DNA of 62,934 bases, the filler included, from Phoronis australis (lineage: Eukaryota; Animalia; Phoronida), in the NCBI GenBank assembly GCA_002633005.1. It is 7 parts of 7 records of this genome, joined end to end, with 100 filler letters (N's around TTAATTAATTAA, not from the genome) between each part and the next. Parts side by side here need not be neighbours in the genome. Positions count along the whole stretch, not along the records: positions 3,063 to 34,948 come from NMRA01000099.1; 6 more parts are not named here. One strand, 5' to 3'. The position numbers were made by a program, and so were the translations under genes. The notes beneath the pieces were generated by a model. That model searched no databases and was not told where the DNA came from. It saw only the letters and a list, made by a program, of their open reading frames with translations. Each line of letters begins with the position of its first letter. Positions within the stretch are counted from its first letter, which is position 1. Shown piece by piece: positions 222-62,934 of the stretch.

Positions 222-2242
222 GGTTCGCGACTTCAGAAAACCAAAGACAGTAAAGATCTGACGCATCCAGATGAGTCACTGTTCCAACGACTGAGATCCT
301 GCGTCCTTCTCCAGACTCACTACCGCGAATCTGTTCGGGCACTGCGGGAAGCACTAGGGGGCAGTCATGTGCTGTCACATTTCCAATCCATCAGCACGTT
401 GGGAGGTCACGCCAACAGTGATGGGTAGGCCTCAGATTTTACAGCAATAAAAGAAACCACCAGTTTCCCACAGACTGTGCCTTCTCTCAACCATTCAGTT
501 CTGCAAAATTATTCCCAAATTTTTACCAACTTAGGTTTGGCACTTCACTGGGAAACTTCAAACAGACTTTGCTTAGGCATAACACAGTGACACCAAGGAA
601 TTTGTTTCACCAAAAGCCCACCCTTTGTCCTGGAGATTATTAATATCCAACATTTCCTGGTATATAAGTAATAATTTATGCAGTGCACAGCTACCCCTAA
701 GGTCATTAAAAATTATTTCATCAACAGATCCCATCCACCAGGAAGTGTGCACAAGGTACGGACAAGCCAGGCGTCACCATCCAAGAAACCCTCGTCCGTC
801 ATCGGTGACAATCTCGGCCATGGCGTCTCCATCGCTGATGAGGAGGCTGTGATTGGCCACCTGGACAACTTCTGTTCCCGTCTACGGCAGGTCATGGACG
901 TGATTAACACTTTGTCTCAGTACCACAAGATGGCGCTGACAACCGACGGCCTGCCACGCCCTCGCAAGGAGGACTTTATTGTGGAGGAACCGGAGGAAGA
1001 TAAAGAACACTGGAAGCAGAAGAAGAGGAAAGACTCCGATCCAGTTGAACAAAACAATAATAATAAACCAGGTGTGTATTAAGGGAAAGTATGAGTAAGG
1101 GCACTCAAATTGTGGGACAACTTGAAAGTCACTTGGAAGCAGCTGTGCCCAGTTGCATTAACCAGTCCCAAATATTGACTCAACTAAGTTTCCTTCATAT
1201 TGTTGTTCTTTGGTTTTTTGTTTTATCTTCATTTATGAGCTCCTGATTGACTAGTGACATTTCCTACCATTATAACTAAAAATGAGCCTTAAATACCATT
1301 AAAATATTAGATATTAGGTACTTGGTCCTTAAGTTAGGGTCATTTCATAAAAAGACCCCTTTATTACCAATAATATTGAGAATTTAATGTGGCAGAGATC
1401 ATTCTTGATTAAGCCAAAATCTGACTTAGTAGTAAAAACTAAAACAAGATGTAAGAAAAGAAAAACAGTGTTTTCTCAAATCCACCAACACGCAGTAGAT
1501 TCAGGGAGCTTAGCTGAGTCCCTATTTAGGCTCATTGTTTCATGCAACTGGACACTGGGGGAGAACGTAAGGATTAAAATTATGGAGAAATTACTGCAAG
1601 ATTGACTATTGTATCTGAACTGTGAGGATGTAGGTTGGAATGAAATTGCTGTCTAATCGTCCCCAGTCTCTTATTTTGGTGTGTACATTTAACACTCAGT
1701 GACAATTCAAAATTAATATGGCCTGTGCAGTACATTCTGTAAACAATGCAGGGGGTTTGTGATTATTCTTTAAATTGATGAGCAAATCTTTTCCTGTGGT
1801 CATTCATTATGATATTGCTGCATCTCGGTTCATTGATTGTCTTAACTTGATTATTGGACGTTCCTTCTAAATGCTGAATGTCTGGCAATGTTAGGAATTC
1901 AGTTGCGGTATTTTCCGTACTAGTCTCAAATGTTGAGGCTGTCAGAGGTCAGCGAGACTTGTAGTGTTGCAATCATTCTATTCCATCCGTAATGTAGAAC
2001 ATCAAGTTAAACTATTTGCGTTTCACCTATAACGTATTGTACTCCCCCAGTTTCGGATTTCGAGGCTGACATGATAGGAGCGGCCCAGGCCAATGATAGC
2101 CGTAACCTTGTCGCGATAGTTGAACATGAGGAAGGGGTAGCGGATGAAGAGGAGGCTGAGGAAACCAGCAAGGGTCACGCGGATGAGGTGCACCTTATTG
2201 CTGCCAAGACCTCCATGACTATGGAAGATATCAATGTTCTAA
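222..2242 (+). CDS. Three internal exons (222-424, 728-1071, 2051-2242) of a divergent dynein heavy chain-like gene (N-terminal tail region); gene is partial
   Basis: AG/GT sites (ttgcag|, |gtaggc; caacag|, |gtgtgt; ccccag|, |gtatgt) join in consistent phases (GG+A, G+TT) into one open frame. The segment VIGHLDNFCSRLRQVMDVINTLSQY resembles the DHC_N1 tail helix of axonemal dyneins. Confidence 0.7.
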
Positions 2243-2962
2243 GTATGTATACTATGGTGAAGGTTGTATAGAACGTTATCGGCAAGCCTGACTGTGTATT
2301 AAGCCAACATTAACTTGATATTTCTAAGAGTAGAAGATCTGACTGTTAGAATTTGATTTCTTTTTTGCTTATTACCTACTTGCTGTTAAAATGGGTCACA
2401 TGACCATAGTAAAATTTAGCAAAAGGTATCAATGTCATGACTGAACTTCATTTGATACGAATGTTGAAGATGAAATCTCAAAAATGCTGTTACAGTATTC
2501 TAAGTTATACATTCACATTTATTTAACTTTTTGTTGTTTTATTTTCACGAAAATCATAAAAGTCATACAAAAATTTAACACGATATTAGAAACAATATTC
2601 CTTATTGATAGTATTTGGAGACCAGTGCATAAAACATAGTATCTGAAGATTTCACATGAATCCAGTCTGCCATTTCTGGGATATGATTTTGCGCAGTAAG
2701 CGAAATCAATTTGGACATATTTTCTAGGCTGAAAAATAACCTACACTTTAGGACATAGCAGGGCTGCAAAGTGGGATTTTGTTTTGTCAAATTCCTCACC
2801 ACAAGTAAATACTAACTAAAGAAAATTTTGCTTATTAAATACTTTAATTTGTTATTAGCATGAGTGACAACATTTCAGTCTGTTAATTTCAGTGCATTAT
2901 TCTTAGCCATGTAGTAAGCCTTGCAATTATGTTTGTCTCAAATTGAGGATTTTTTTGCATAT

Positions 2963-3062
2963 NNNNNNNNNNNNNNNNNNNNNNNNNNNNNNNNNNNNNN
3001 NNNNNNTTAATTAATTAANNNNNNNNNNNNNNNNNNNNNNNNNNNNNNNNNNNNNNNNNNNN
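2963..3062. other. Artificial contig linker 44N-TTAATTAATTAA-44N
   Basis: Exact 100-bp structure with stops in all six frames; recurs identically six times in the window. Confidence 0.97.
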
Positions 3063-3158
3063 CATTGGAAGAAATTTAGCGGACATTTTTCGTCAAAAAG
3101 TTTACCAGATAGTTTTCATCAAAACGGAGAAAAGAAAAATGGATTTGTGAAGACAGGA

Positions 3159-3380
3159 TTAAGTAGTAGGCCTACCAGAGCCTCTTAAAAAACACCCATC
3201 TTCGAAGTGACGTGAACAAATGTACAAGTTTTTTTTGGAAGAACAACTTCCATTCACGTCGACGCGAGAACATAACTTTTTCTCCCACAGCGGATTTTGG
3301 GGTCTCCATACACTATGGAAGCTAACGCCTCTGCATTTCGCCTGCGTAGCCGAACAACCGGCCACACAGCAGCCGACCAT
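3159..3380 (-). pseudogene. THAP (C2CH) zinc-finger ORF remnant, probably the 5' end of a P-element-like transposase
   Basis: MVGCCVAGC...SFH...W...ICSRHF matches the THAP consensus and stops right after the domain. A candidate terminus CATAGACTATAGTACATGGACC starts at 3530 on the minus strand. Confidence 0.7.
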
Positions 3381-6024
3381 GATTAGCAGACGACGTACTT
3401 GCCGGAAATTACACCAGATAATTTAGCCAGGTGTCGCCAGTGAATAATGACGTAAGGGCTTGTGCGCAAGCTCACAGATTTCGTCCATTGAAAGTATACG
3501 GAGTTGGCGGTCCATGTACTATAGTCTATGATTAGATAGAGTTCTGAGTCTTCTACGGCGTCGAAAAGTATATTGTATTATTTGGCTGGGCACGGCCAAG
3601 CAGACTACAACACAGCCTAACAGGTTCGGCCTATTAACACAGTGTAAGAGTTAAGTCTAGAGTGTACTCACATAACGTCTGTACAGGAAGGCAGCAAACT
3701 CCAGAAGGCCCAACCCAATGAGTTATAATATAGAGACGACACGACCGTACTCGCAAGCCAGGCAGCGCGTGGCACGCGGTCCGCCATATTGATGATGAAC
3801 GCTGTGTAAACAAAAGCACGCTTTTCTTATGGAAGCCGGGGAATTTTTTAAGAATAAAATTTGAAATTTTATATACTAACGAGGTTCTAAAATATTGGTA
3901 ACATAAAGCAATGTAAACCTGAGACCCACGCATTGTTTAAACGGTCATATAAGCCATTGCAAAGACAAAATTCCTAATGTTTTGGCTGAAATTCTCACGG
4001 AGGGCTGCTAGGGCCTGGGAGATTTTGCCGGCTCAGTCGAAAAGACAATCACTGAAATGTATAAAATTTAGAAAATGGCATTATACAGTGATTAACCTTT
4101 TTTGTCGCTATAATTATATAGTACCTATTTTTTCAGTTCCGGTTGTTTATAAACCGACAAGAGGGTCAGTTGCCAAAGGGGCCGCTCTCCGACGAGCCAT
4201 TACAACACTGCATTCCCAAAGTTTTTAATATGGGTCTAAAAATTCCTTGACCCGACGCCACTTGATTTATTCTAACAAAAAGATTTGAGGCATGCGTTCG
4301 TGTGAAACACTTGAATACAAAGTAGAAAAAAAATTAAAGAAACCCATGGAAATCTATGAGCAATATGCGTGCATGTAAAGTCGTGTTATTGTATACAACA
4401 ATTGATCAATGGAACTGTAGTTGTTTGTTTACATGTGCGTATTCGGAATTGAAGTCAGTTTTAGTTATAATAACTGATGTGTTAACATTAAGTATTTCAA
4501 TGAAAAAAGAAGAAAGCACGACACCAAAAACACTCTGTACTGGTTGATAAGGCACACACATATATATAGTGTATACATCGGTTACCCGCGTGTGCCTGTG
4601 AACACCACTGCTTGGGCGACCGAAACCGGAGGTTGACGTATCCATTTGCACAGACCCAATTTCCCGAAAGGTGATTGGAATTGTCTACTTCACGTTATAC
4701 CAAGGAATAATAATTACATTAATATGCAGACGTTTTTCTCAAAAAATAAAACGCATGTAAGGGGTGCTGAGGTGTCTCAAGTAAAATTACTTCAGTGATA
4801 TACGCTACTTTCTTTAATTATCTACTATAACCAGGAAGAGAGAACCACTTCTTGGTATTACTTATCCTAGTACCCAATTCATCTTAGCGAAGCGAACTAG
4901 TAATTTATACAGTTTGAAACGACATGATCTCACAGTTCAAAATATCGTAAAACAACATGACACGCCGCGGAACTAGAGTTTTAAAAAGGCATTCGCATTA
5001 TTACTTTTTACCAATTACTTTTTACCATTATTACTTTTTACTTTTTATTAATTTTTACGCCACTCAATGTACCCCTTTTATGCGACCATGATGTAGGGAA
5101 TCGCCGTTTTTTCTGTCAATAACAAGCACACTTCCACATTATTGGCCATCCGGAAAGAGAAGAACAAGAAAAATTCACACAAAAACAACACATTGAGATA
5201 CTGTAACCATTTCAAACAATAAAGATTCGATTTATTTCAAAATATATTTATTTCCAAATATCACCATCACGCAGTAAAATCACACCGTAACAGTAAAAGA
5301 GAAATGTTTAGCAGGTACAAAGTTACTGTACCGTACTGGTACCATACATGCACTGCACTTCAGCAAAAGTCAGGTTTCAATCAACTCTAAGTTAATCACT
5401 CAATTCAGTTGAATGCGGCATTTACTGGCCCACAATTATGTTACTAGCACATTTATATTGACAACACCCCGCCACAAAATAAATAAAATGACAAAACTCA
5501 ATGGTCGTAAACTCTACCTGCTCTGTCCTACATATCCAGGCATTAATCAGAAGATCACAAATAGGACAGAATACAAAAATGATGATTTTCCTCGAGTAAG
5601 ACAGTTGCAGATTTTAAAAGCTCACCAGGCTACAGAACATTTGTCCCATCTCTTGAAATCTGGAGAAACAACCCATCTAACGTCTCAATATAACCTTGTT
5701 GGGTGTAGCATTCTTGGTGTATCCCTTCCTTCGATCCTGTTCTATTCTTAGTAACGTGGCTATATTAATAAATAGTCGTATTGGGGTCCACTCTGTAAAA
5801 AATGCACAACTATTAATCTTGTAGCCACTTTTTGTGTTTCTTCGTTGCTAGAAAACAACAGATATCTTTATACTAGAAATCAAACTTTATTTTTTTATTT
5901 GTTATGTTTTCCTTTAATTCTGTGCTCAAGCATGCAATGATTTTCTTAGATGATTTTCAAAAAAATCATAGTTTGCATTTGATGATACTAACATAAAAGC
6001 TATGAGTATTTACTTGAAATCTCG

Positions 6025-6332
6025 TGTTGTTACCAATATTGGTTCCTACACTATACACACGCATCTCCACTAATATGGTTCATCAGCAAGATGGCGGACC
6101 ACTCCGCTCAACGAAAACCACGTGACTTCCAACTCTAGTTATATTGATCTCATTGGCCCAGCCGATCTTGTCACGTGGTCTTGACAGGTGACGAGTCACG
6201 TGATAGCAGAGTGACCTCTGCTGGACTCTTCTGGGTGTCAGGTGTCGCACCAGGCCAAGACCAACGTTATTTAACGAAAAGGACTTCACAACATAGGCGC
6301 CACAGCCGAGACTGACGTCGACATTTACTACA
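6025..6332 (-). mobile_element. Putative 3' LTR of an LTR retrotransposon (distal boundary uncertain)
   Basis: On the minus strand TGTAGT begins directly after a polypurine tract. The region contains a CCAAT motif followed by TATAA, repeated CACGTG motifs, and a candidate ACAACA end at 6025. Confidence 0.65.
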
Positions 6333-6346
6333 TTCCTCCCCTCCCT
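6333..6346 (-). promoter_or_regulatory. Polypurine tract (plus-strand primer site)
   Basis: Minus strand reads AGGGAGGGGAGGAA, immediately followed by the TG of the LTR. Confidence 0.7.
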
Positions 6347-7243
6347 AAAGAAAAGGAGTGGAGCCCTTATAGCAAATGGCGAACGTCAATCCCAACATCT
6401 AAACATAAACCCTTGACTAAGAAATCAGTAACAAGAACTTAAACCCTATAACTAAAATGATGTGGAATGACCCTAGTAAAGTACGAATTTCTGATTATGA
6501 ATATTCTGAATAAATTTAAATATAACTATTCTCCCCCCTACCAAAAAAGACAAAAACTAAAGAGACACACAGTCATTGCATATATCCAACGGAGTAGTCG
6601 ACCGTGACTAAAAAAAGAAAAAACAAACAAAAACATGCCCCACTAGCACAAGTACCAGGGAACATGGAAATTCTGAACTATGCTATGACAACACTCTGAT
6701 TGTTTGTGATGACCTGGTGAGAATATATATACATTTAAAAAAAACTAAGAAGGAACTGAACAATGAAAAGCATACTGGCCATAAAATGAGTATTCATTAT
6801 ACTTTAGTAGTGATACACTGAGATATAAAATGACATAGTCTTACATAACATACATAGACTATATGGAAAACATAACTTGATATACAGAAATAGACTATAT
6901 GGCACCAACCAATACATAATACTATAGAAAGTATAGTCTTGGATAATATAAATAGACTATATATATAGTATGGAAACATAACTTATAACAAAAATATATT
7001 ATATAGTTTTAACGAATAAACACTACTATATAAAAATAATCGACCAGTATGTTACTTAATTACTTATAAGTACTTAGAGGACACCACAATTCTCCTAGGA
7101 CCAAGGGTAAGGCACAAACCAAGAGACCCTGATCAGCCTCAGACTTTACAATAACGGGCAATTACACAAGGGACTAGGAGAAAACCTAAGGCATAAGTTA
7201 TGACCCAGGCACACCAGGATGCTATACCACCTCTAACAATTTG

Positions 7244-8080
7244 TTAGAGTTGGTAAAGCCGCCTGGCGTTCCTGGTGGAAGCAGCCAGGATGTCACCCAG
7301 CGAACGACGAGAACGCTGCACCACCTCCATAGCCACTTCCCCCAGGTATTGGGGCTTGCCCAATGGCGAGGTGCGCTGAATCGGACTCCAGGAGGAGTCG
7401 ATTCAGCGGAACCTCTTGTAGCCCGTTATTATTTTGGAACTTTAGGAACCGCTTTACATGTCCGACAAAGCCGAAATGGCAGTTTCTAAAGTACCCCAAC
7501 CACCGGAGTACATCCTCGGGCGCACCTCCAAAACAATGGAGATACAAACCCAAGTCTGCACCACAGTGGCGCTTCAGGTCAAAGACAAAGTCCTGGCCCT
7601 CCAAGACGTGTGGGTTGTCGGGGGACCACGAAGGTGGATCACCACGACTTTATTTTTGAGGCTGGGGAGCTGGCCCGAACCTCCGCAAAGATCCGCACCA
7701 TCTCCTCCAAAGCCTCTTTTTGGATGGCCAAGTCCTCCCGGGCCTCCAGACCAACCTCACCTAAGCCAGCTACAAAAGGGCTCCTTTAGTAGCTGAGGGA
7801 GACGCTCTAGAACACCGGGATTCGTTGTTCTAACCCGTTTGGGGTGGATACCCACCACAGCCTTCCAGCCATGTGGAAAATGGGAAGCCTCGACGTACAC
7901 CCAGTTTTCCATATCGCAGAAAGCTGCAATCCCACCGACCAACCGTAAAGACTTCTGAGAAGCCCGTGGCAGCTGGGCGGTGAGCATTTGGTCGATCGTC
8001 AGCATCCTAGTCTCAGTGAGATGACACTGAGCTAAGGATGCCGACAAGTGATCTAAATGGAAGTGGATATCTATAGCCAA
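7244..8080 (-). pseudogene. TatD-family nuclease domain, about four frameshifts, inside the LTR element
   Basis: Ordered TatD motifs across frames: IDIHFHLD, VVGIHP, GLGEVGLE, VVVIHLR, LHCFGG, RLLLESDS, YLGEV...STRNARRLY, then TAA at 7244-7246. Confidence 0.9.
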
Positions 8081-9377
8081 ATCAGGGACTGGTCTTGATT
8101 TGAACGGCGATGCCCCAGATGAACGTCGACCCTTTAAGGGCCGGCCAGGTGGCTTGCGAGCCTTAGCCGCATACTTCGTCTGAGGGTACGGCGCACCAGC
8201 ATCCCTCAACTCCTGTTTTGGTAGGGTGGCCTACTGCCTCCAATAAAGCAGACGGCCAGCCTGTTGGTAGAGGTTGTTCAGCCAAACACTCCCTTGCTGC
8301 TGTCTAGCAGCAAGTAAAAGTTCAGCAGAACCAGCTCCACCAGAAGAACTTGTGCTAGAGATAGCCACCCCCGAAGATGTGGAGGCCAGTACTCCTTGTC
8401 CCATCACGCTACCCACCGAAGTAGATGGGGTCACGGAACTGGGTGGCACCTGACCCGGAAGTCCTGCGCCACCCGGCCACATGTCTCTGGGCAGCACGGG
8501 TAATACGTGCGGCCAAAGCCGTGGATCCAGGCGGATAGTACGTCAGCTGGCAACCTCGACAATAACACCAGGACAACATACCAGTGGATGCAAGCTTCGG
8601 GGCTGTTGATCCTGGGATCAATCTCAAAGAGAGCCGAGTGAGGCCATCCCATGGCACTACACATGAACCCCATAGACATTAAGTCCATGACGTGCATGCA
8701 TGGTCGCATAGAGGTTGCAGAGATCCAGAAGGTCCCTACACTCTCTTATCTCACGGTCGACCACTAACCTGTAGAGCACCGACAAGGCTTCAAACCTTAT
8801 TCGATGCAGCGCGAGGTCGGCTAAGGTAAACGCATTAGTTACCGTGAAGAGGGCCGGTAAATGATGCGCATACGCATGACGACGTAAATTCTCGTCCTCT
8901 GTGTGGTCTCCGGGAACGTGGAAACCACAAAGAGGGCAAGAAAGGACCTCGCGTTGTCGTGGAGGAGCAGAAAAATCTCCGGACCAGCCTTAGGGCGGGG
9001 TGGAAGACTTCACTGGGCCCCCTTTGAAGATTTTTTGGTTTTTGGGATGTTTCCTCATCTTCCACCTCCATGGGTACAAAGGGTTGAGACTCCGTAGCCA
9101 CAGGGGCGGATGACGGAGGATCATCCAAAATAGAATCATCCAGGTCCGCCTCTGAAGAGAAGGGCATGGAGGGTTCCTGAGGTACTGGAGCTTCTCCTTC
9201 CACAGAAGTCGATTGTCCACTACCCAAAGATGGCGTCGGCACCGGCATACCCTCGTCCTGGGGACGGGCACGACGGCGACGGTCGCTTCAACTGTTATCT
9301 GACTGGGGGCATTAGCATTGCCCCTGAAGACTGGCAGATCGGGGTTTTCCTTAAGCCGTACATCTTGACAAGAGAAC
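8081..9377 (-). pseudogene. N-terminal part of the TatD-fusion gene: acidic/Pro-Ser-rich region, C2H2 zinc finger, helical domain with INSPEACIHW, low-complexity linker
   Basis: GC-rich coding-like sequence contiguous with TatD. CPLCGFHVPGDHTEDENLRRHAYAHHLP at ~8855-8938. Several frameshifts and stops. Begins after a splice acceptor tttttatttatag| at 9378. Confidence 0.65.
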
Positions 9378-9397
9378 CTATAAATAAAAACATGTAA

Positions 9398-9502
9398 TCA
9401 TGATAAGTAAGACCGCCTAGCGGGCTTGCACAGAGGGCAATGATATTTGTCGATGGTAGCCGCTACCTCACTGTTGATTCCGACACAACTACCATGACAC
9501 CA
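9398..9502 (-). pseudogene. C-terminal half of a PHD finger, truncated by a LINE tail
   Basis: WCHGSCVGINSEVAATIDKYHCPLC matches the PHD pattern W-x-H-x2-C...Y-x-C-P-x-C. Confidence 0.8.
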
Positions 9503-10039
9503 TTTTTTCAAGTGATATATATTTATTGAAGAATACACAGAACATACAAAGAAATAATAACAAACCCAGAAACCGCTAAGCATTATATCTGGGTTGTTAA
9601 CAATTCATAAATGAAACTAATATACATAGAGGTATATACAATTAAGTAGTATCTAAAATAAGTATTCCAATACTTAGATATGCAATTACAGATATATAAA
9701 AACAAAATTATGTACAGATTCATGTAGGGAAATCAGATGCAACAATATTGATAAACTGTACATAAAAATTTACTAACATTGCGTAGGAGGAATTCGTTGA
9801 GAACGAAGTCAAGGTTAGGACTACCATTCAATAATAATGTAACTCCAGAACGGATATTATTACAAGAATTGAGAGCGTTAACAATTGATTGGTTTTCATT
9901 GAGTGCACGAAAGAGCGAGTCTCTCAGGTATTCGATGAGGGGACATTTGAAGAAAATATGAGGATAAGATTGATGGTCACCACATTTACAGTTTGGAGAG
10001 ACATTACTAAAGTTGTGCCTGAACTTGTCATAGTTGAGG
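9503..10039 (-). mobile_element. 3' end of a non-LTR retrotransposon (ORF2 C-terminal CCHC region, 3'UTR, short A tail)
   Basis: Frame LNYDKFRHNFSNVSPNCKCGDHQSYPHIFFKCP...LLNGSPNL ending in TGA at 9733-9735; AATAAA at 9522-9527; A6 at 9503-9508. Confidence 0.75.
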
Positions 10040-10040
10040 N

Positions 10041-10911
10041 AAATGTTGAATTTATTAATTAACCCCGGTAATTAAAAGTATACGGATGAAAAAAGATTTA
10101 AATGTGTGCAGTTTTAGTGTTGGGGGGGGGGGGCTCAAATTCAATTTCAAGTGTCAAATTCGGAACACGGCGCATTCGTAAGGGAACTATGGCTAAGTAT
10201 AGGCTCTCCCGTGATATCCCAGGCGACCGGCAGTAGCGCTGCACACTTCGACTCCGTTTCTGTCGTCTGCTCCACTGTGCAATGAAGAAAATTTACTTCA
10301 TTTTTTAAAGAAGATGGAACCTGAGTGACGATGAAAAAACAGAAGCTGCTGGTAAGATGTGAATTTTAATCGAAGCCTTAGTGAATCACTCAGAAACTCG
10401 CAATTTATACTCTCTTTGTCAAACCTTATCTTAAAACGATTTCCAAAACAATCCCGTCATTATTGCCAACACGAAAAACGGATTTGGTCTTTTGGGCATT
10501 TGAAGACTATTTTAAATACTACAAATTTGTTAAGAATTGATGGCACAAAATATAAAACGTGTAATAACCATTACAAAAAGAAGTAGGTTTCGCGCGCAAA
10601 CGCTGTGGACCATAAACAAGTAGGTCTCTTAGTAGGACATTAGTAGTTAAATCGCGGTGGTGTAGTGGTAACGTACGCGCGCTCTATTCTCCAGGTCGTG
10701 AGTTCGAGTCATTGATACGTGCAGTTTTTCCTGTTTGACACGTTCTCCGTTTTTTTTTGCCTTTTTTTCTTGGATATTACTTCAGGAATCAAGGAAAATG
10801 CTTGATTTTTAGAGGTAAAAACAGAAAAATTTCCTGGGCGGGAGGGGCGCAAATGCTTACAGCCGGACAAAATGTTGGGCACCCCCTTGTGATATCCTAG
10901 ATCCGCTACTG
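10041..10911 (+). mobile_element. Non-autonomous hAT-like DNA transposon, copy 1 (left end cut at the N at 10040)
   Basis: About 600 bp shared with 22335-22975. Right terminus CCTAGATCCGCTACTG is an imperfect inverse of the CATAGGCGGATTTAGG start of copy 2. Confidence 0.65.
10653..10715 (+). ncRNA. tRNA-derived pol III promoter remnant (A and B boxes) inside the DNA transposon
   Basis: TGGTGTAGTGG (A box) and GTTCGAGTC (B box) at tRNA-like spacing; cloverleaf stems do not pair. Confidence 0.55.
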
Positions 10912-11021
10912 CATGGATACTACGTCTGGTTTTTCGTCGACAAGATACTCTATTAGAGTTTGCCGTTTACCTCTCGCCCCATTGAGGTTAGTAGTAGTAG
11001 TAGTAGTATCATTCACGTTAA

Positions 11022-12596
11022 AGGAGAATGCCACCCAAAAACAACCTATTTTGTATCAATTTAGATCGAGTAGTTCTACTCGATAACGGCAGATTCGGTT
11101 GCGTTACCTGACACCTGACGGCAGACGGAGGTGTTGAAATTATCCAATGACGTAATTGGTTTCACACGCAATCTGTTCAGCAGTTCACACTGGGTTAGTG
11201 GTGTTAGCTTATCGCTTGAATTCATCGTTTAACACCAATAAATGATCAAACTTCGATGTGAAACCCTTAAAAATACACCGAGTTCTTATTAAAACGTGTT
11301 GTTTTATTTCGCTGCCGGATTTACTGGTATTTGGACATGACAATTGTTCGGCTGGAGTTTGGGGTCTGTTCGGAGATAAATTCGAAGTATTCTTCCGTGA
11401 AATACAGACAGGAGAACGTAGATCTGTGTTGTTTATACTTGTGATTTTTGAGTTCTAAATACACAAAACGCTTGTTATCCCGGCCAGTGGCTCGGAACCC
11501 GATCAGGCCCGTCACGGCCGCCGGGACTGGCCGGGGCACGAACATAAACCAGCTTGAGTTGGAAACTACTGAAAATCCAGTCACGAAGAGACTATATAAT
11601 AGTGAGTCAAAGAAATAATGTGCACGTAATTATTTATATGAATTAGCCACGGAACTGAAAATCTACTTACTTGTCGGGGGCCGCCAAAGTCGGGTTCCCC
11701 TTCCATAGACCGTCAGGGCAAAGGTTGTGCAGTAACAATGGTTTGAATAATGTATTTTTATTTCTAAATAAAGATTCCCCTAACATGTGACAATAGCATA
11801 TAAAATCGAGTAATTGTTTCACAACAGCAAACACTGAATTAGCATGCGCTCAATTACCTTTGTTGCCGGCATCAAAAGCCGGTAACGCAGTGCCGGGTTT
11901 ATTCATTGCTGGCTTCTCACTGAAAACATTTGCACTGACGAACACTCCAAGGCATTACAAAATGTATCTAATTAGACAGGCTTTGTGTCAGTTTCATATA
12001 AGCATTGGTTAGGATCATTTTAGGATGAGAATAATTCATTTTGAAACAGAACGCACAATAATAAACGTCTACATGGCAACTCGCCCGGCACCAATCCCGA
12101 CTGGTCAAGAGCTCATCTGAAGAAGACTTCACGGGTCGGATCGTTAGGTTTCACAGCCTATCAGTTCGAACCAGAATACACTGATCAAGAAATACTAGAG
12201 AGTCGCCGTGAACATGCCTAGGCAACGGAACGTATGAATAGTTCTTTGGTAAGCCGTAATTCGTCAGAGAAATCACTCAATGCCGGCCACAGACACGGAG
12301 TTGTTTCACGGCCTCATGACTTGCATTAACAGCATACCTTTCATTCTTCACTACCGCGAGCCACTTCCTAAGCACTTCGGGCTCTGGAGGAAGTCGAAAA
12401 ACGATATAACCGCTTTCTTCGCAGCTTCATAGTTCGGACAAGCGGGAAACGACTGCACCGCAATATAGCGGCATTCACTCAGTAGACGAACCACTGATCT
12501 CGCTGCGTCGCATCTCACCTTCCTCACAGGTTAACGCGACATCTCTCGGCAAGGTGAGGTCGACCGTATAAGAGGCAATGTGGATATAGACCAATT
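11022..12596. mobile_element. Kolobok-like non-autonomous DNA transposon, copy 1 (one end missing)
   Basis: TTAA|AGGAGAATGCCACCC terminus; reverse-complement homologue of 51548-53090; AYQFEPEYTDQEI remnant at ~12156-12195. Confidence 0.75.
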
Positions 12597-22259: not shown

Positions 22260-22975
22260 CATAGGCGGATTTAGGGGGGGGGGCTCGTCCCCCCTTGCCT
22301 GCCGCAAAAAAGTAAAACAGCATGAGCGTAGGGAAATGTTGAGTTTATTAATTTACTCCGGTAATTAAAATTATACGGATGAAACAAGATTTAAATTGTG
22401 CAGTTTGTGTTGGGGGGCTCAGATCCAATTTCTAATGTCAAATTTGGAACACGGCGCAATCGTAACGGAACTATGGCGAAGTATAGGCTCTCTCGCGATA
22501 TCCCAGGCGACCGGCAGTGGCGCTGCAGACTACGACTCCGTTTCCGTCGTCTGCTCCACTGTGGAATGAAGAACTGAAATTGCTTCAATTTTTAAAGAAA
22601 ATGGAACCTGAGTAACGAAAAAACAGAAGCTGCTAGTAAGATGCAAATTTTAATCGAAGCCTTAGTGAATCACTCAGAAACTCATAATTCTCTCTTTGTC
22701 AAACCTTAACTTAAGACGATTTCCAAAGCAATCCCGTCATGATTATTGCCAACACGTAAAACGGATTTGGTCTTTTGGGAAATTGAAGACTATTTTAAAT
22801 ACAGCAAAATTTGTTACGAACCGATTGCACAAAATATAAAACGTGTAATAAGCATTACAAAAAGAAGTAGGTTTAGCGCGCAAACGCTGTGGACCATAAA
22901 CAAGTAGGTCTCTTACTATAGGAGTTAAATCTTGATGGTGTAGTGGTAAAGCACGAGCGCTCTATCCGCCAGGTA
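22260..22975 (+). mobile_element. Non-autonomous hAT-like DNA transposon, copy 2 (3'-truncated)
   Basis: Starts CATAGGCGGATTTAGGGGGG; colinear with 10041-10695. Confidence 0.65.
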
Positions 22976-23670: not shown

Positions 23671-24816
23671 TTACACGTGGTAGTCGTTGATACGTGCGTG
23701 ATTGAGGCGCTCTTCAGAGGATGAGGCCAAAGTCGTTCCGTTTTCTGCGTGTATCGATTTTGTCAACAAAATGCTTTGTTTTGCAGCGTCCGAACTTTGA
23801 ATAGGAGGGCTGGCCTTTTGACTGATGATATGGAGACGTGCCAAATAAGACAGTAGTATTGCTCTGAATTTTCTGTTAAAGATGCAGTAAACGACGAAAT
23901 TCAACGAGTGCTCGAGAACGACAATGAGTGTCGCCACTAGTTTTGAGATGTAGTAGGACGTTGTCTCGGTGGCTTCCTTGCCGAAGATTTCGCTAAAAAT
24001 GGCGCGGCTAATGAACGTGGCCGGAATATTGCCGATTATATAGAGGCAGATGATGGCGATGAGCATTTTCGTGAGGCGGTTGTTGTCGCGGATTCTGTAG
24101 AAGTTGGAAATGTTCTGAGCCGCCCCTCGCCGTTGTCGGTTGGATGACATAACGTAACGAATGAGCAGGATGTTTAGAATAGTCAACACAAGGCACATTC
24201 CTATGGAGAGGACAATGAGCTGTATCCAAACGAACGTTTTGAAGAACTGACTGGCTCCAAACTCCGTGAATCCAAGACTCAAATCGTCATTGGTTTTGAA
24301 AGCAAAAAATCTCGGCGTGTTGTAAATTATTGAGAAGAGGTAGACGCCAAGGGTCACCTTGCGTGCGTTCGAAGGAGTGCAAATGGTGCTTGCACGTACC
24401 GGAAATGTCACAAATATATACCGTTCTATCGTCAGAGCAACAGTTAAGAGTCCGCTCACTTTGGTCGCCATGGAACCTACTGTGAAATATACTTGATACT
24501 CGTAGACTTTCCAGTCTCGATTGTGCTGATAATGACCTCGCGAGAAACCACTTAAGAAGAATAAAATCAAAGTTAACATATCCGATATGGCGAGTCCCGT
24601 GAGATAGACAAATGGGGACTGGCTGAGGTTTTTGTTGGTTAGAACGACAAGATTGACAATATTGCACAAAACTCCAATCATGCATATAGGTGGAACAATG
24701 TAGCCGTAGACGACTTGGTCGATGATTTCATGATCGCCAGATGGCAGTAGAGACGAGTTCACCAATGAACAAGTTTGATTGGAACCGGTGACGTCACAAT
24801 CGTAGATTGATTCCAT
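23671..24816 (-). CDS. Rhodopsin-class GPCR, FMRFamide/sex-peptide-receptor-like, single coding exon, 381 aa
   Basis: Seven hydrophobic segments; YLTGLAISD (TM2), TIERY (TM3), NFVVYCIFNRKFR (TM7/H8); N-glycosylation sequons NQT and NSS; Kozak atcATGG; splice acceptor tatttacag| 11 nt upstream. Confidence 0.93.
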   Translation of the reverse strand: MESIYDCDVTGSNQTCSLVNSSLLPSGDHEIIDQVVYGYIVPPICMIGVLCNIVNLVVLTNKNLSQSPFVYLTGLAISDMLTLILFFLSGFSRGHYQHNRDWKVYEYQVYFTVGSMATKVSGLLTVALTIERYIFVTFPVRASTICTPSNARKVTLGVYLFSIIYNTPRFFAFKTNDDLSLGFTEFGASQFFKTFVWIQLIVLSIGMCLVLTILNILLIRYVMSSNRQRRGAAQNISNFYRIRDNNRLTKMLIAIICLYIIGNIPATFISRAIFSEIFGKEATETTSYYISKLVATLIVVLEHSLNFVVYCIFNRKFRAILLSYLARLHIISQKASPPIQSSDAAKQSILLTKSIHAENGTTLASSSEERLNHARINDYHV

Positions 24817-27800
24817 GATGTATGCACCTGTAAATAGAAGTGAATTTTTGGATCGAATTTCATTTTTACGAACGTTCTAATTTACAGTATCAAACGTCAC
24901 AAACAGCTGGTCATAGAATAAAGATTTTTGAAACATTTATTCAGTGACGGCTGAATAGTCACAGACAATATAAACAGACAGTAAAACTTAGCTGGGATAA
25001 TTACGAACAATTAATTGATATTATCTCTTTTCCAGTCACTCGCATTCACCATAATAGTTCCAGCCTTCTGCAAACTGAAGAACCATAGGGGTCCATCGAC
25101 TATTGAAAACTTGCAATTGGCATATTTTGGAAAATAAATTTACTACAAAGAATTTATAAGACAGCAATCAAACTCCAGTTTAACTAACTGAAGAATTTCG
25201 CATGCCTATGGACCAGAACAGCAAGAGAAGGGCAAAAACCATAGGGTTGCACGGACGTATTTAGCTTCTTCAAAGTTTGTAGACGATTGGGGTAAAATGT
25301 CCATTCGCTGTCATCATGGTTTTCGTTCAATTTACCTACGCCTGCAAGTGATTGCCCTCTCCCTAATCTCTCTCCTGCATATACACAACGAGCACTTTTT
25401 AGATTTCAGAGCGGATTCAATCCATGCAAGTTAGATGTGAGCACTGTTACAGTTCTCAAACACAGAAGTCACGTCTACTCTCAGTAAGGAACAGGTTGAG
25501 ATCGATTACATTAGGGCATATAATCTAAATTAAAAGTTATTTTTACAGAATACGGGTTCCTAGCATATCAACTTTAATACAAACATGTTTTGATAGAACC
25601 TGTTATGCAACACTCAAAGCAAATGTTAGAAAGTGTACAGGAAATTTCGAAGGAAAACTATCCCGGCGGATATAAGTTAAATTTTAATCTACTAGTGGAG
25701 TATCGATTGTAACAAAAGTAAATTTATTTTTCTCCACATAAACACGTGTCATTACTAAATAGGCGTTTAGTGCAAGCCTGTGACGGAGACCGCTATTCTC
25801 TTATTTGCATGGTTACTCTTATCATTTATTCCTTGAAATACGCCAGAGACTTCTTGGTTTCTCATTAGCGAATTAAAACAAGGCCTGTCAATGAACGAAA
25901 ATGAATTTTTCTGAACGTCCAGGGTCACTGAGCTCGCGGATTTATGCGAAAACAAAAGCAAAACAAAAACACGCTCACGTCAGAAAATCGAAGTGTATTC
26001 TTAGCTCCGAAGAACTTTTGAATTGTTGTTTGAAAAACATTCATGTAATTCTGTTGACACTGATGAGCATTTTAATCATGCTTCATTGTCGTCAAATATC
26101 TCACCGTAAGGGGGCGTTCCGCCGCTGTTTAGCAGCCAGTGTTGCACTCATAACCGAAACGGTTTCGGGTTTAGAAACATTGCAAGGCTAATTCATTCTT
26201 CAACGTTTGCCCAATGAACCCCCCGGCAACTCAACTAGCCACAGACAATGCGTACACGCACCATTTTCGAATTTGACATTTTAGGGTCGGCTAACCCTAA
26301 TGAACTCTGAAGCGTTTTCTCGAGTCGCTGATGGTTTCCAGGGTGTTATTGTTGGTAACGGAAATAGAACCTTATCGCGGTGAGGCATATTATGAGACCG
26401 ACGAGTAAAAGGCCTAATTCGATTTTCGTTTTTAGTTAGATTACCAGAATGAAATGCAGTTTTAACATCTAAAGAGAGTACTTGGATGTTGGCATTGATT
26501 TCTCCGTTATGCGACTCATTTTGCGCGAAATGACTCCCACCTTCAAGGTTAAAATGAACGATTTTATTTTGTAAATGAATCTTCGTTGTTAATAGCAAGA
26601 ATAGAAAATATCTGATAGTATCAGATTTACAGTGTAAAATGTCCTTGGTTTCATGACGTCGAAAAACAGGTAAAATTGACTGCATGCATGAATGCTGTTG
26701 TTGAGGTACGTGAGAAAGGAATCCTGTTAATGGATAAGGAATCGCTATTAATATATGTGAAAAAGAAGTGCGTTAGTATGAACTAAACTGCTGCTGATTA
26801 GAAAACAACTTCAGCTCTCAAGAAAAAGTGCCTAAATGAAAAAAGGGCGCAGTTCATGAGAACGCCCGTGCGGATCGCGAATGATTTAATAGTAGTATTA
26901 ATGGTTTATTGCATCTAACTATTTTACTCAACATTTTTACTTAATTGCTCATCTATAACCTCCTTCTCCAGGCTTCAGCGTACGCTGCTTCGATTTCTCA
27001 GAGATTTTTACGACCGCTTCGATGATGCATGGCGTGCAAGATATTCCAATCAGAGAAACAAATGTTTCTTATAAAAAGCGATCTGAATTATTATAACGAA
27101 GTCTTGAAGGACACAAGTATTGTTATTAAGGAAAGCAAGGTAGAGTGGGAGACTTCAAGAAACAAGGGCTCCGTCTTTCAGTCTCATCACACAGCAACTA
27201 TTTTGTTTTGCTTGAAGGTAAGATCGATAAGTATTTCGAGAGCACAATTCTCCATGTACGAAATTAACTAATGCTTACGTTAGTAGTTTTGTGTGACCGA
27301 AGGTGAACACGTGGTGCGGATGAAAATATTTTTGAGAGAGACGTTTCGAGACTTGGTGCAATATCATACGTTTTTTGATATTAGTATAAGTAGGCGAGCA
27401 TCCGTTTACAGTGAGACTTCCAAAAATCTTTTTTCCTCGTTTGATTTGGACGTACACCAAAAATACAGCTACGCTGACTAGAAGTCTGTAGGATAAGATT
27501 ATGCTGTACATTTTCTGAGAACGATGCACATGGAAAGTGATTCATAAGGGTGCTGCTTACTTAATATCAAAAGTTAGAGGCAGTTCTATGGAGGTAAACA
27601 ATGTGTAGCTTCGTTAGGAAAGCCAGCCTTTGTTGGTAAGTTACTCGACTTCATCTAAGACGAATCACGAGTTAAAAAGAGATTGAAATCGGATAGTCCC
27701 TACAAGGAATTAGTCGCATGACAATGTCGTTGCATGAGTCTGGTTGCTGGGACATGCGCCAACAGCCTTTCGCATTTAAAAATGTCTGCGCACGTTTCCG

Positions 27801-38900: not shown

Positions 38901-39480
38901 GAAACATGCCATGGGGTTGATGCTCATGTTCCGTTTGCTAACAACACACTTAAACAGCAATATCTCTGTAGAAATCAATCCAAACTGTACATAATACACG
39001 TCACCATGTCCGTCTCAATGAGAATCTTTTGATATGTAGCACATGCATATTCTTTTACTTTTTACAAAATTATGTAAAAATGCAGGTATTTCACAAATAA
39101 TTGTCACGTTTCAACAGCCATTTTCTCAGTAATCACTCACCCAATTTCTATGATTTTTGCACCCTTTCATTTCTCACACCAGGGGCTTTTCAAAAATGTA
39201 TGACACATGGACATTGTAAAAACATAAAAAACGTCCTCCCTATTATAAGTAATGAAAGGTGGATTTTGGCTGCTTTAAATTCAAACTAAACCAATGTGTC
39301 ATATGGCATATGAAAGCCACTTTTGCGATGAGCAGAGTAAATACTGGCAATTAAGGCTTAGGGTGAGGTCACTACCTGCAATATGAGGCCCCATTGCATG
39401 AGCTGGTATTTGCCAAACACATCTGTTCTCAAGCTACATTGTTTTTTTAAAGATCCATACCAACTTCCACTCACTTCACC

Positions 39481-40176
39481 CACAGGCGTCCTCAGCTTCT
39501 GGTCGTCCCAAAAGTCAATACACTATATATACTACAAGGTATCACACTCCGGACTAGAAATCCCACGGGTGCTTCACTTCAGCTGTCCATAACAAACATA
39601 AAACTCAATAAATTTACACAAACAGAGGTTCAACAAATCATGAGGAATTGTTCTTTCTCTCAATGCCATTTAGGGTGTCCTGCTCCACCGAGTTCGCAAG
39701 AAATTCGCGGTCAAAGCACAAAAATCTTCCCAAATAGCTTATTCGGAGCAATTCCTTGGTCCCACGTGCAGCGTACAGAATTATCTGATGAGTTACGGAT
39801 GAACGGCAATTGCTGAGTTATCGATGCTTTGACTTTCCAAGAAGAATCGGCAATTGCCATACATCCGTAACTCATCGGATAATTACGTACCCTGTGCGTG
39901 GGACCAAGGAGTTGCTCCGGACGGGCTTTTTAGGGAGATTTTTTGCTTCGACCGTGAATTTCTTGCAAACTTGGTGGATCAGGACATCGTACATGGTATT
40001 GCCATTGGGTGAAAGAACAATTCTTCATGGTTTGTTGAACCTGTTTTTTCGTAAATTTATTGAGTTTATGTTTGGTATGGACAGCTGAAGTGAAGCACCA
40101 GAGGAATTTCTAGTCCGGAGTGTCATACCTTGTAGTATAGTGTATTGGGGACGATCAGAAGCTGAGGACGCCCATG
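39481..40176. mobile_element. Palindromic MITE (hAT-like) with exact 8-bp TSD ACTTCACC
   Basis: About 330-bp inverted arms, CACAGGCGTCCTCAGCTTCTG...CAGAAGCTGAGGACGCCCATG; TSD at 39473-39480 and 40177-40184. Confidence 0.92.
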
Positions 40177-41273
40177 ACTTCACCCAGGCTAGGGCTGAAA
40201 GGGTAGGTTATTTTTTAAAACAAAAACACAAATATGGCTTTGTATCTGTTTTTCTACAAAACACAGTTCATTGGACACTGTTAGAGTTAGGCTAAGCACA
40301 TAAAACAAATTCTTAAGCAGCTAAAACCAGTAAAAGATAATGGAAGATAGTGAATAACAGGAAGTAATAGTGGGTTGGGCACTAGCCGACGGCGTCTGAA
40401 CTCATCCTGTAATGGTTGATGCGGAAGTAATAGTGATTAACTTTACCTTTTTAATGTTGTATATGCGAGTAAGCATGCCATTACCGCGGTCGCACAGAAT
40501 CGTAAGCTTTTCAGCGAGCTTCTGGTGGCTCGGTATCTGCATAGACCGCGACATTATCAACCAAAACAATCAGTTACTTCACTAAACTATGATGAAGTGA
40601 ACATCCTCTTCTCCATTTTTCAAATCTCGATGAAATCTCGAGCACTGACGAGAATGAGCTACGAAATAATGTTTTCAAAAAGAAAGTGATAACACAACTT
40701 CAAANNNNNNNNNNNNNNNNNNNNNNNNNNNNNNNNNNNNNNNNNNNNNNNNNNNNNNNNNNNNNNNNNNNNNNNNNNNNNNNNNNNNNNNNNNNNNNNN
40801 NNNNNNNNNNNNNNNNNNNNNNNNNNNNNNNNNNNNNNNNNNNNNNNNNNNNNNNNNNNNNNNNNNNNNNNNNNNNNNNNNNNNNNNNNNNNNNNNNNNC
40901 GTTTCAACAGCCATTTTCTCAGTAATCACTCACCCAATTTCTATGATTTTTGCACCCTTTCATTTCTCACACCAGGGGCTTTTCAAAAATGTATGACACA
41001 TGGACATTGTAAAAAAATAAAAAACGTCCTCCCTATTATAAGTAATGAAAGGTGGATTTTGGCTGTTTTAAATTCAAACTAAACCAATATGTCATATGGC
41101 ATATGAAAGCCACTTTTGCGATCAGCAGAGTAAATACTGGCAATTAAGGCTTAGGGTGAGGTCACTACCTGCAATATGAGGTCCCATTGCATGAGCTGGT
41201 ATTTGCTTAACACATCTGTTCTCAAGCTACATTGTTTTTTTAAAGATCCATACCAACTTCCACTCACTTCACC

Positions 41274-41964
41274 CACAGGCATCCTCAGCTTCTGGTCATC
41301 CCAAAAGTCAATACACTATATATACCACAAGGTATCACACTCCGGACTAGAAATCCCACGGGTGCTTCACTTCAGCTGTCCATAACAAACATAAAACTCA
41401 ATAAATTTACACAAACAGAGGTTCAACAAATCATGAGGAATTGTTCTTTTTCTCAATGCCATTTAGGGTGTCCTGCTCCACCGAGTTCGCAAGAAATTCG
41501 CGGTCAAAGCACAAAAATCTTCCCAAATAGCTCATTCGGAGCAAATCCTTGGTCCCACGTGCAGCGTACAGAATTATCTGATGAGTTACGGATGAACGGC
41601 AATTGCTGAGTTATCGATGCTTTGACTTTCCAAGAAGAATCGGCAATTGCCATACATCCGTAACTCATTGGATAATTTCGTACCCAGTGCGTGGGACCAA
41701 GGAGTTGCTCCAGACGGGCTTTTTAGGGAGATTTTTTGCTTCGACCGTGAATTTCTTGCAAACTTGGTGGATCAGGACATCGTACGTGGTATTGGGAGAA
41801 AGAACAATTCTTCATGGTTTGTTGAACCTGTTTTTTTTGAAAATTTATTGAGTTTATGTTTGGTATGGACAGCTGAAGTGAATCATCAGAGGAATTTCTA
41901 GTCCGGAGTGTCATACCTTGTAGTATAGTGTATTGGGGACGATCAGAAGCTGAGGACGCCCGTG
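41274..41964. mobile_element. Second copy of the same palindromic MITE within the duplicated block
   Basis: Same arms and same TSD (41266-41273, 41965-41972). Confidence 0.92.
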
Positions 41965-43315
41965 ACTTCACCCAGGCTAGGGCTGAAAGGGTAGGTTAAT
42001 TTTTAAAACAAAAACACAAATATGGCTTTGTATCTGTTTTCCTACAAAACACAGTTCATTAGACACTGTTAGAGTTAGGCTAAGCACATAAAACAAACTC
42101 TTAAACAGCTAAAACCAGTAAAAGATAATGGAAGATAGTGAATAACAGGAAGTAATAGTGGGTTGGGCACTAGCCGACGGCGTCTGAACTCATCCTGTAA
42201 GGGTTGATGCGGAAGTAATAGTGATTAACTTTACCTTTTTAATGTTGTATATGCGAGTAAGCATGCCATTACCGCGGTCGCACAGAATCGTAAGCTTTTC
42301 AGCGAGCTTCTGGTGGCTCGGTATCTGCATAGACCGCGACATTATCAACCAAAACAATCAGTTACTTCACTAAACTATGATGAAGTGAACATCCTCTTCT
42401 CCATTTTTCAAATCTCGATGAAATCTCGAGCACTGACGAGAATGAGCTACGAAATAATGTTTTCAAAAAGAAAGTGATAACACAACTTCAAACATTTGAA
42501 ATTTATGGAAAGTTTGAAGAAATTACAGAACATTAAAATGTTTTTTCCTGATTTTACGTCCTGTTTGTTAGAAACATAGTTGATTTCCGGATGAAACTTT
42601 GGTCCCTCAGATTATTTCCACATATGGGTCACAGTGGGTGACATAAAAACCGAAGCAACATGTAGAGAGAGTAAGTTTGCAGTGTTTTACAAGTTCTTGG
42701 AGTTCTCGTGCTGTGTTTTACAATGTTTATGAACTGCTATTTTACTTTAAAACTACCACAAATGCTTTGAGAACCATTCAAGCACACGGTTTCGTTGGTA
42801 AGTACTACAGATTGCAACAGGATTCGATGGAGTGTAGGCGGTTAATTTTATTTGAGTATATTTGCGTTTAATGACGACGGCAGTGATTCATAAAACTGCG
42901 ATAACCTGTGACCCTATCGTACAATTACCTGGCTTTGAATGACCTGGGGTTTTGAGATACTCGACACTCGTGTGACTCAAGAAGTAAGTTGTCTACTGGG
43001 CCTGCTAATGTATTTTGTGTTAAACTGTGTTTATCTCACTCTTGGGAAACTTCTGAACTCTTTCAGCCACAAACAGGACTCGGGTATGACGTAGGTTGTA
43101 CTTGTTTGGAACAGGTGTGTTCATGTTTATGTAACACCAGATAGCCAGGTAATAGTGGTATTTTGAAGATGAGTATTCAGTCAGTTTTAAACTTAAGCTG
43201 CATTTTTAAAATAAAAATATTTTTTCAAAAATTTACAATGTTTTTTAATTTTCTTGAAAAGCTTTATTTGTGCTGTTTGATTTAATTTTTGTTATTTCTT
43301 TTCAGAAAATCGAAC

Positions 43316-61346: not shown

Positions 61347-62934
61347 CTGCCTCCGCTGGCCTCTGCTGGCTTTCACTTGTCTCCACTGGCCTCCACTGGC
61401 CTGCACTGGCCTCGACTGGCCTCCATTGGCCTCGACTGACCTCCACTGGCCTCCACTGTCCTCCATTGGCCTCCACTAACTTCCACTGTCCTTCACTGGC
61501 CTCTACTGACCTCCACTGTCCTCCACTGTCCTCCACTGGCCTCCACTGGCCTTCACGGGCCTCCACTGTCCTCCAATGGCCTCTACAGGCCTCCACTGTC
61601 CTAGGCTGGCATCCGCTGGCCTCCGCTGGGCTCCACTGGCCTCTGCTGGCCTCCACTGGCCTCCTCTGGCCTCCATTGTCCTCAGCTGGCTTCAGCTGGC
61701 CACCGCTGGCGTCCAATGACTTCCACTGCCCTCCGCTGGCCTCTTCTGGCAACCGTTGGCTTCTGCTGGCCTCCCCTGGCCTCCGCTGGCCTCAGCCGGC
61801 CTCCGCCGGCCTCCGCCAGCCACCGCTAGCCTCCGCCGGCCTCCGCCGCTATCCGCCGGCCTCCACTGTCCTTTATTTTCTTACCGGGGCCTCTATTGGC
61901 CTTTAATGGCCTCCACTGACCTGTATTGGCCTCCACTGGCCTCTGTTAGCCTCCACTAGCCGCCACTGGTCTCCACTATTCTCCACTAGCCTCCACTGGC
62001 CTCCACTGTCCCAGGGTGGCCTCCGCTGTCCTCCGCTGGCCTCCGCTGGCCCCCCGCTCGCCCCTGCTGGCCCCCGCTGGCCCCCACTGGCCCCCACTGG
62101 CCCCCGGTGGCCCGCGCTGGCCGCCTCTGGCCCCCCCGGCCTCCGCTAGCCTCGGCTGACTTCTGCTGGCCACCGCTGGCCTCATGGGCCTGCATTATTC
62201 TCAACTGGTCTCCACGGATCTTCACAGGCCTCCGCTGTCCTCTGCTGGCCTCCTGTGGCCACCGCTGGCCTCCGCTGGACTCCGCTGTCCTCCGCTGGCC
62301 TCCCCTGGCCTCCACTGGCCTCCTCTGGCCTCCATTATCCTCAGCTGGCTTCAGCTGGCCTCCGCTGGCCTCCGATGCCTTCCGCTGCCCTCCGCTGGCC
62401 TCTTTTGGCAACTGTTGGCTTCTGCTGGCCTCTGCTTGACTCCTCTGTCATCCGCTGGCCTCCCCTGGCCTCCGCTGGCCTCCGCCGGCCTCTGCCGGCC
62501 TCCGCCAGCCTCCGCTAGCCTCCGCCGGCCTCCGCCGTCCTCCGCCGGCCTCCGCTGGTCTCCGCTGGCCTCTGCTGGCCTCCGCAGTCCTCCACTGGCC
62601 TAAACTGGCTTTCACTAGCCTCGACTGGTCTCCATTGATATCGACTGGCTTCCACTGGCCTCCACTGGCTTCCACTGTCCTCCGCTGGCCTCCACTGGCC
62701 TCCACGGGCTTTCACTTGCCTTCGCTGGCCTCTGCTGGCTTTCACTGGCCTCAACCGGCCTCCACTGTCTTTCAATGGCCTCGACTGGCCTACATTGGCC
62801 TCGACTGGCCTTGACTGGCATCCGCTGGCCTCCTCTGGGCACCGCTGGCCTCCGCTGGCCTCCGCTGGCCTCCACTGGCCACCACTGTCCTCCACTGGCC
62901 TCTACAAGCCTCCACTGTCCTTCACTGGCCTCTA
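61347..62934. repeat. GC-rich 10-bp satellite (CTGGCCTCCR)n
   Basis: About 150 diverged decamers filling the whole segment. Confidence 0.97.

Follow-up and report, generated by a model that had tools for sequence, protein, structure and literature searches.

A TatD nuclease in the env position of a dead Ty3/Gypsy retrotransposon of Phoronis australis

Introduction

Why does a gene for a TatD nuclease lie between a piece of a PHD finger and an LTR-like sequence in the genome of Phoronis australis? The window, that is, the whole stretch of DNA that was analysed (62,934 nucleotides), was described in an earlier note as holding at 6025-9502 an LTR retroelement with a TatD nuclease gene in the env position, and this description is borne out, with the corrections given below: intact relatives show the order gag-pol-TatD. 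We put the probability at about 95% that what remains here is the 3' half, now dead, of a Ty3/Gypsy retrotransposon that belongs to a clade in which pol ends in a PHD finger and TatD occupies the place of env, and that its layout is the one described below. The Ty3/Gypsy features are found in two relatives (L002 and L006), whose pol has the order protease-RT-RNase H-integrase and to which the window is tied by homology of the pol C-terminus.

Layout of the element

Read on the minus strand, the region runs from a LINE-like 3' end through the end of pol, an acceptor-like AG, a GC-rich broken gene, AT-rich DNA and a polypurine tract (PPT) to an LTR, and all the parts that had been claimed for this strand are present in the claimed order. 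The segment at 9503-10039 lies outside the LTR element; it consists of an ORF and an A-rich tail with very high read depth, and we take it, by its motif, to be a LINE-type 3' end with the C-terminus of the RT, Pfam having given no match there. The LINE tail cuts pol within its PHD finger. At 9504, seventeen RNA reads pass out of the window to a single other sequence that they share (agreement 0.97), indicating that there are other copies without the LINE tail at this place.

The last 34 codons of pol and its stop (9400-9398) occupy 9398-9502 and encode the C-terminal half of an integrase-linked PHD finger. Among 2000 ORF pieces of the window, this half (9502-9401) matched a profile of pol C-terminal PHDs at E 7.6e-9, the next match having E 0.043; Pfam alone gave a weak PHD in the 34 codons, and tblastn with five pol C-termini matched the pol end of the window at 38-50% over 26 amino acids. 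The PHD finger noticed earlier is thus real, though it is the end of pol and not a separate fragment. About 20 nt past the pol stop lies a putative, pyrimidine-rich splice acceptor (9378-9390, AG at 9379-9378). A pyrimidine-rich YAG site after the pol stop was also seen in 9 of 13 PHD-bearing relatives, as judged by eye with no chance control, and no splice joint at the acceptor was found among the reads listed.

ORF3, in the env position, extends over 7244-9377 and was delimited by ORFs, tblastn and the profiles of relatives; it is GC-rich and interrupted by stops and frameshifts. Within it are a C2H2-like zinc site together with a helical domain that fits no known family (8542-8938, matched by a profile of the relatives' middle domain, A3, at E 6e-8 and 4e-7) and, at 7244-8077, a TatD domain of the Group II (HxH) type. 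An AT-rich 3' non-coding region of 897 bp (6347-7243) follows, then a PPT of 14 purines (6333-6346), comparable with the GGGG(A)GAG-type tracts before TGT in relatives, and the 3' LTR. The stops and frameshifts of ORF3 and four frame breaks in TatD confirm that this copy is dead. Gag, RT, the integrase core and the 5' LTR were all absent from the window, and the statement that gag and pol lie outside it therefore holds for gag, RT and the integrase core but not for the last 34 codons of pol.

ORF3 and its TatD domain

Pfam PF01026 matched three consecutive pieces that lie in different frames (E 0.006, 5e-5 and 0.27). A TatD profile built from relatives matched five (E 4e-24, 3e-19, 1e-7, 0.005 and 0.25, among the 2000 ORF pieces of the window), so that the TatD domain spans 8077-7244 with four frame breaks. 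A frameshifted gene of about 2.1 kb ending in a complete TatD domain had been proposed, and this is what 7244-9377 contains, with the correction that its ORF3 is devoid of the N-terminal helical domain of about 100 residues common to 13 aligned relatives. The homologous ORF3 frame in the window copy has no start codon of its own.

The HxH, GE and two further His positions of TatD are invariant in all 44 aligned rows, and ExD in 43 of them, one being truncated. The window copy keeps the metal-ligand positions and shows a Glu at the non-ligand GLD position. The HxH motif marks Group II TatDs, according to the accessible part of PMC10085689, and by this motif the domain belongs to Group II. Among PDB sequences, YcfH gave the best score (118 bits, E 6e-33), followed by TatD (101), TATDN1 (50) and TATDN3 (47), and TATDN2 was absent from the list. 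The Atlas model of one relative (P0013) matches TatD clusters at TM 0.78-0.83, in agreement with a TatD fold.

In the ORF3s of relatives, TatD (PF01026) was the sole domain recovered by a Pfam scan. In the long ones, a helical N-terminus and a stretch of low complexity come before a zinc-like site (CP-x-C...H-x-H-P) accompanied by a helical domain, with TatD last, and outside these domains ORF3 is long, low-complexity and basic. The highest 19-residue hydropathy was 0.95-1.51 in the ORF3s of six intact relatives, and these have no hydrophobic or membrane segment, indicating that ORF3 is not an envelope protein. The middle domain of one relative was modelled at pLDDT 87.9. Sequence searches with this domain gave no named match (best E 0.04 in Pfam and 0.36 among PDB sequences); on the side of structure, Foldseek found none in PDB and viral models at E<=0.001, the best Z of a VIA-wide search was 3.1 among 48,161 chains, and Atlas values stayed under 0.9. 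The modelled fold is therefore without known match among the structures searched, which does not amount to proof of a new fold.

Relatives and linkage of TatD to pol

A phmmer search with the TatD piece of the window over 1.84 billion representative proteins returned 32 matches, of which 31 are TatD-type proteins or fragments and the remaining one is an unrelated giant protein. Pfam TatD was found in 28 of them at E<=0.01, and all 11 long matches examined have the middle domain. Mya arenaria has 13 annotated copies in one cluster at at least 90% identity, Ostrea edulis is also named, and molluscs make up most of the nearest structure cluster in the Atlas. The N-terminal TatD piece had no match in a word-index search; a metagenome scan gave a single bacterial TatD, and a viral-contig scan none among its 29 candidates. 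A scan of genome contigs yielded eight loci, all of them in symbiont assemblies, which we infer to be contamination of these assemblies by the animal host.

L002 and L006 both carry gag (CCHC), pol (protease, RT, RNase H, integrase, PHD) and, directly behind it, the TatD ORF. At its 5' end L002 has an LTR with host flank, followed by a TGGCG site resembling a primer-binding site (PBS), and at its 3' end a PPT and the start of a second LTR; the two LTRs are 99% identical over 94 nt and have different flanks. The linkage of TatD to pol, PPT, LTR and PBS is thus seen directly in contigs of relatives. The five pol ends scanned all finish in a PHD finger (PF00628, E 1.5e-9 to 3e-7), with no chromodomain. 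L048 was dropped as a further case of paired LTRs, its two identical 340-bp LTRs both following a PPT as in a collapsed or circular assembly. The Gag of L006 starts with a helix-hairpin-helix (HhH) domain (PF12836, E 2e-11; L006:3-150), and L002:1650-1900 is similar by eye, with no Pfam match.

Nearly all genomic context comes from one bacterial genome representative heavily contaminated with animal repeats (G001), in which 21 contigs have a non-bacterial TatD. A pol C-terminus is found upstream on the same strand in 15 of the 21, and seven contigs show gag, RT-RNase H, integrase and TatD. As for the other six, the sequence upstream is below 1.6 kb in four and 2.5 kb in one, less than in its close relative; the sixth shows gag only. 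With 150 of 176 candidates scored, G001 gave 121 Gypsy-type integrase matches. Fourteen of these, on 13 contigs, run through a PHD finger, and TatD is present on all 13 contigs; it is present on one (L040) of the 99 other integrase contigs, some of which are truncated. The TatD genes of G001 are labelled bacterial hydrolases in NCBI. On another contig (L052, G001:C1280), a broken TatD is preceded at 1.5 kb by a gag match and pol is missing from the space between them; this may be a non-autonomous form left by a deletion.

L040 (L040:1638-9032) represents a second lineage. Its pol has no PHD finger, its integrase is 45-49% identical to the rest, and its distant ORF3 has a similar middle domain and TatD. 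L018, L024 and L041 belong with it, on a separate TatD branch (support 100), and the lineage reflects either an old split or a transfer of ORF3.

Evolution of the TatD gene

A quick tree was made from 55 rows, namely 21 contig ORFs, 24 proteins selected out of 60 because their domain was complete, nine bacterial TatDs, and the window copy, in which X stood for each break; the rows known only as proteins are without genomic context. The bacterial TatDs form one side of this tree (SH-aLRT 98). The window TatD falls on a long branch (1.48) inside a group of 41 rows (support 95), which is apart from the L040 group (100) and from the single TATDN2-like row (P0060), itself on a long branch outside the element groups. 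The label of this last row is our assumption from its motifs.

As the earlier note had suggested, dN/dS was computed among copies, here the relatives, and was 0.13-0.15 in the five measurable of 12 pairs, three of the five coming from one lineage and hence not independent; the other seven were saturated at synonymous sites. As judged from sequence comparison, the TatD gene is old and under purifying selection, with its ligands kept. Trees of integrase and TatD from ten elements both give L002+L042 and L049+(L047+L048) and place L040 apart, while L004+L044 and L006+L045 are each paired in one tree and adjacent in the other; a Mantel comparison of the two proteins over these elements gave 13 of 5000. 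This large agreement of the two trees fits long vertical inheritance. TatD identity among elements is 31-60% versus 45-83% for integrase, showing that TatD diverges faster.

Copies in Phoronis australis and extent of the LTR

Public sequencing runs (X1 and X2), including RNA, were chosen by species label and mapped to the region. In X2, contigs with 0-1 differences from the window had a depth of 28-45, against 797 for a sister TatD contig (30 differences in 427 letters); in X1 the window-like contigs had 4-7 and the sister TatD contig 224. Although read depth is not copy number, an excess of 20-50-fold reveals a subfamily that is both younger and larger and lies about 7% away from the window copy. 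Indels set the deep sister contigs apart from the window at roughly the positions of its frame breaks, which suggests that these breaks belong to the window copy. By read depth the element is multicopy over its whole length, 3' non-coding region included, and so is TatD in this species. None of the three outcomes named in the earlier note as refuting its reading occurred: TatD has many copies, relatives link it to pol and to PPT and LTR, and one relative (L002) has paired LTRs. RNA reads over TatD are few, and most have the opposite mate direction to the LTR reads: most mates point one way at 5322-5925 (LTR) and the other way at 6379-8190 (3' region and TatD). If the RNA library was stranded, a property not on record, the internal region would be mostly transcribed in antisense.

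The LTR had been placed at 6025-6332. Its start is as claimed, with TGTAGT at 6332 directly after the PPT, but the proposed end at 6025 is not upheld. Summed read depth is 2,095-5,463 over 5171-6227, as compared with about 650 just inside the PPT and 916-1,217 over TatD, so that LTR depth is about 2-6 times that of TatD, an indirect sign of paired LTRs in this family; this high depth runs across 6025, and other copies are joined on both sides of it (joints 5339-6054 and 5963-6055). No PBS was found after 6025, where there is no TGG. Further on, the sequence ends in ...GGGGTACA at 5068, which provides a TG...CA end with TGTA/TACA symmetry, and a pair of AATAAA signals is found at 5252 and 5236, near which RNA coverage drops. 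The end at 5068 rests on the sequence, no read junction at this position being among the rows listed. Taken together, depth and joints across 6025, the TG...CA end and the lack of a TGG argue that the LTR probably covers 5068-6332 (1,265 bp, about 1.27 kb, minus strand) rather than 308 bp. The LTRs of relatives, which measure 221-340 bp, and the LTR of L002, which likewise ends in ACAACA, speak for the short form, but given the depth, the joints and the missing PBS we regard it as rather unlikely.

Possible function of ORF3

We give even odds to the reading, based on analogy, that the TatD of ORF3 acts intracellularly on nucleic-acid intermediates of the element itself. Like the env of errantiviruses, ORF3 would be translated from a subgenomic mRNA that arises by splicing; the absence of a start codon and of the N-terminal domain from the ORF3 frame of the window, together with the acceptor-like site after the pol stop, fits expression by splicing. 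The basic, zinc-binding and helical domains would then bring ORF3 to nucleic acid or to the integration complex, where TatD could remove RNA from RNA:DNA hybrids, or else process the cDNA or the integration gap by trimming 3' ends and abasic sites. This role on hybrids, cDNA ends or gaps is favoured by what Group II relatives do on other substrates: in the accessible text of the respective articles, Group II TatDs are 3'-exonucleases on single-stranded DNA and AP-endonucleases at abasic sites (PMC10085689), and TATDN2 degrades the RNA of R-loops and is an RNA 3' exo- and endonuclease (PMC10711561). The TatD step is not essential to retrotransposition, since 98 of the 99 non-PHD Gypsy contigs in G001, some of them truncated, are without TatD.

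Alternatively, the enzyme could serve counter-defence by degrading host small-RNA guides, or the nascent RNA and hybrids used by piRNA silencing at element loci. Such a role would suit the RNA 3' exo- and endonuclease activity of TATDN2 (PMC10711561), which acts in and protects germ cells as far as the available part of PMC12709183 goes, and would also suit a gene that is dispensable for most Gypsy lineages and diverges faster than integrase (31-60% versus 45-83% identity). However, no sign of an arms race is seen in the dN/dS of 0.13-0.15, a whole-gene measure, and no host target is known; we hold counter-defence to be unlikely. Still less probable is that TatD has been kept mainly as a scaffold or chaperone that binds nucleic acid, with catalysis secondary: the long, low-complexity, basic remainder of ORF3 would be in keeping with this, but ligand positions invariant in 43-44 of 44 rows would be needless for a scaffold. 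Finally, a chance assembly, with a host TatD retrocopy or pseudogene caught between a solo LTR and a PHD fragment of other origin, might be argued from the lack of gag, RT and integrase core in the window but is extremely improbable: intact elements have counterparts of the PHD half, middle domain, TatD, PPT and LTR start in the same order, the region is multicopy over its whole length, and its TatD groups with element TatDs, apart from bacterial and TATDN2-like ones.

Comparison with known systems

Chromoviruses have a domain of the chromatin-reader type, the chromodomain, at the C-terminus of integrase. The present elements resemble them in ending integrase with such a domain and differ in that it is a PHD finger.

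Juno and Vesta, LTR retrotransposons of bdelloid rotifers, have an ORF3 that is a DEDDy 3'-5' exonuclease of unproven role, according to the accessible part of PMC5408684. Like these, the present elements have in the env slot an enzymatic ORF3 from a family of 3'-5' exonucleases, with no membrane segment and intact catalytic residues (PMC5408684); unlike them, they carry TatD instead of DEDDy, joined to a zinc-binding, helical domain whose fold has no known match, and have a PHD finger at the end of pol. In the present elements purifying selection can be measured, whereas for Juno and Vesta the same portion of PMC5408684 gives no significant departure from neutrality within the genome. The third ORF between pol and the 3' LTR and the acceptor-like site after the pol stop recall errantiviruses, as presented in the available text of PMC13524379, but there is no signal or transmembrane segment, and the product has a soluble nuclease domain instead of being a fusogen (PMC13524379). 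With Group II TatDs (YcfH, YjjV, TATDN2 and TATDN3) the domain shares HxH and the other ligand positions (PMC10085689, in its accessible part), and with TATDN2 a long N-terminal extension; it differs from them in being multicopy, borne by an element and on a separate branch of the tree.

No previous description had been known to the earlier note, and an LTR element with TatD likewise did not turn up in our literature searches; their scope did not extend to Repbase or to most subscription journals, so that an annotation in a database may exist. In the accessible main text of LTR surveys of molluscs and annelids, neither 'TatD' nor 'PHD' occurs. The kind of element is therefore already known, from the enzymatic ORF3 of the rotifer elements, and the TatD-bearing Gypsy variant is undescribed in the literature searched. 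With it, the few enzymes that LTR retrotransposons carry in place of env include a second 3'-5' nuclease family, unrelated to the first. Being clade-wide, old and under purifying selection as judged above, this TatD appears to be no passenger, and intact natural genes make the role of an enzymatic ORF3 directly testable by a standard TatD assay. The element also yields a confidently modelled domain without structural match, and the expanded bivalve 'TatD' annotations, such as the 13 in one Mya arenaria cluster, are likely transposon genes.

More tentatively, and with the odds somewhat against it, one may propose that in marine invertebrates a Gypsy clade, old and so far undescribed, exchanged env for TatD joined to a zinc-binding domain of new fold, in combination with a PHD-tipped integrase and an HhH-tipped, DNA-binding Gag, which together would let the element choose its chromatin targets and clear RNA:DNA hybrids or silencing RNAs. 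Under this proposal the same ORF3 would sit on a second, PHD-less pol lineage, and many mollusc genes annotated as 'TatD' or 'uncharacterized hydrolase' would be transposon genes.

Other features of the window

An exon-like piece of a dynein heavy chain was found at 675-1079 on the plus strand (PF08385, E 0.0015); one of the introns of this gene may harbour the element, in opposite orientation. High-copy repeats are located upstream of the LINE tail (10037-10696 and 11018-12429), with second copies at 22330-22974 and 53094-51691. The window also contains an intronless rhodopsin-family GPCR (23674-24876, minus strand) and a thrombospondin-repeat exon (43286-43840, plus strand). A 1.6-kb duplication (39107-40704 and 40900-42492, 97.7% identical) flanks an N gap and is likely an assembly artefact, and the end of the window (61350-62934) is a GC-rich tandem array.
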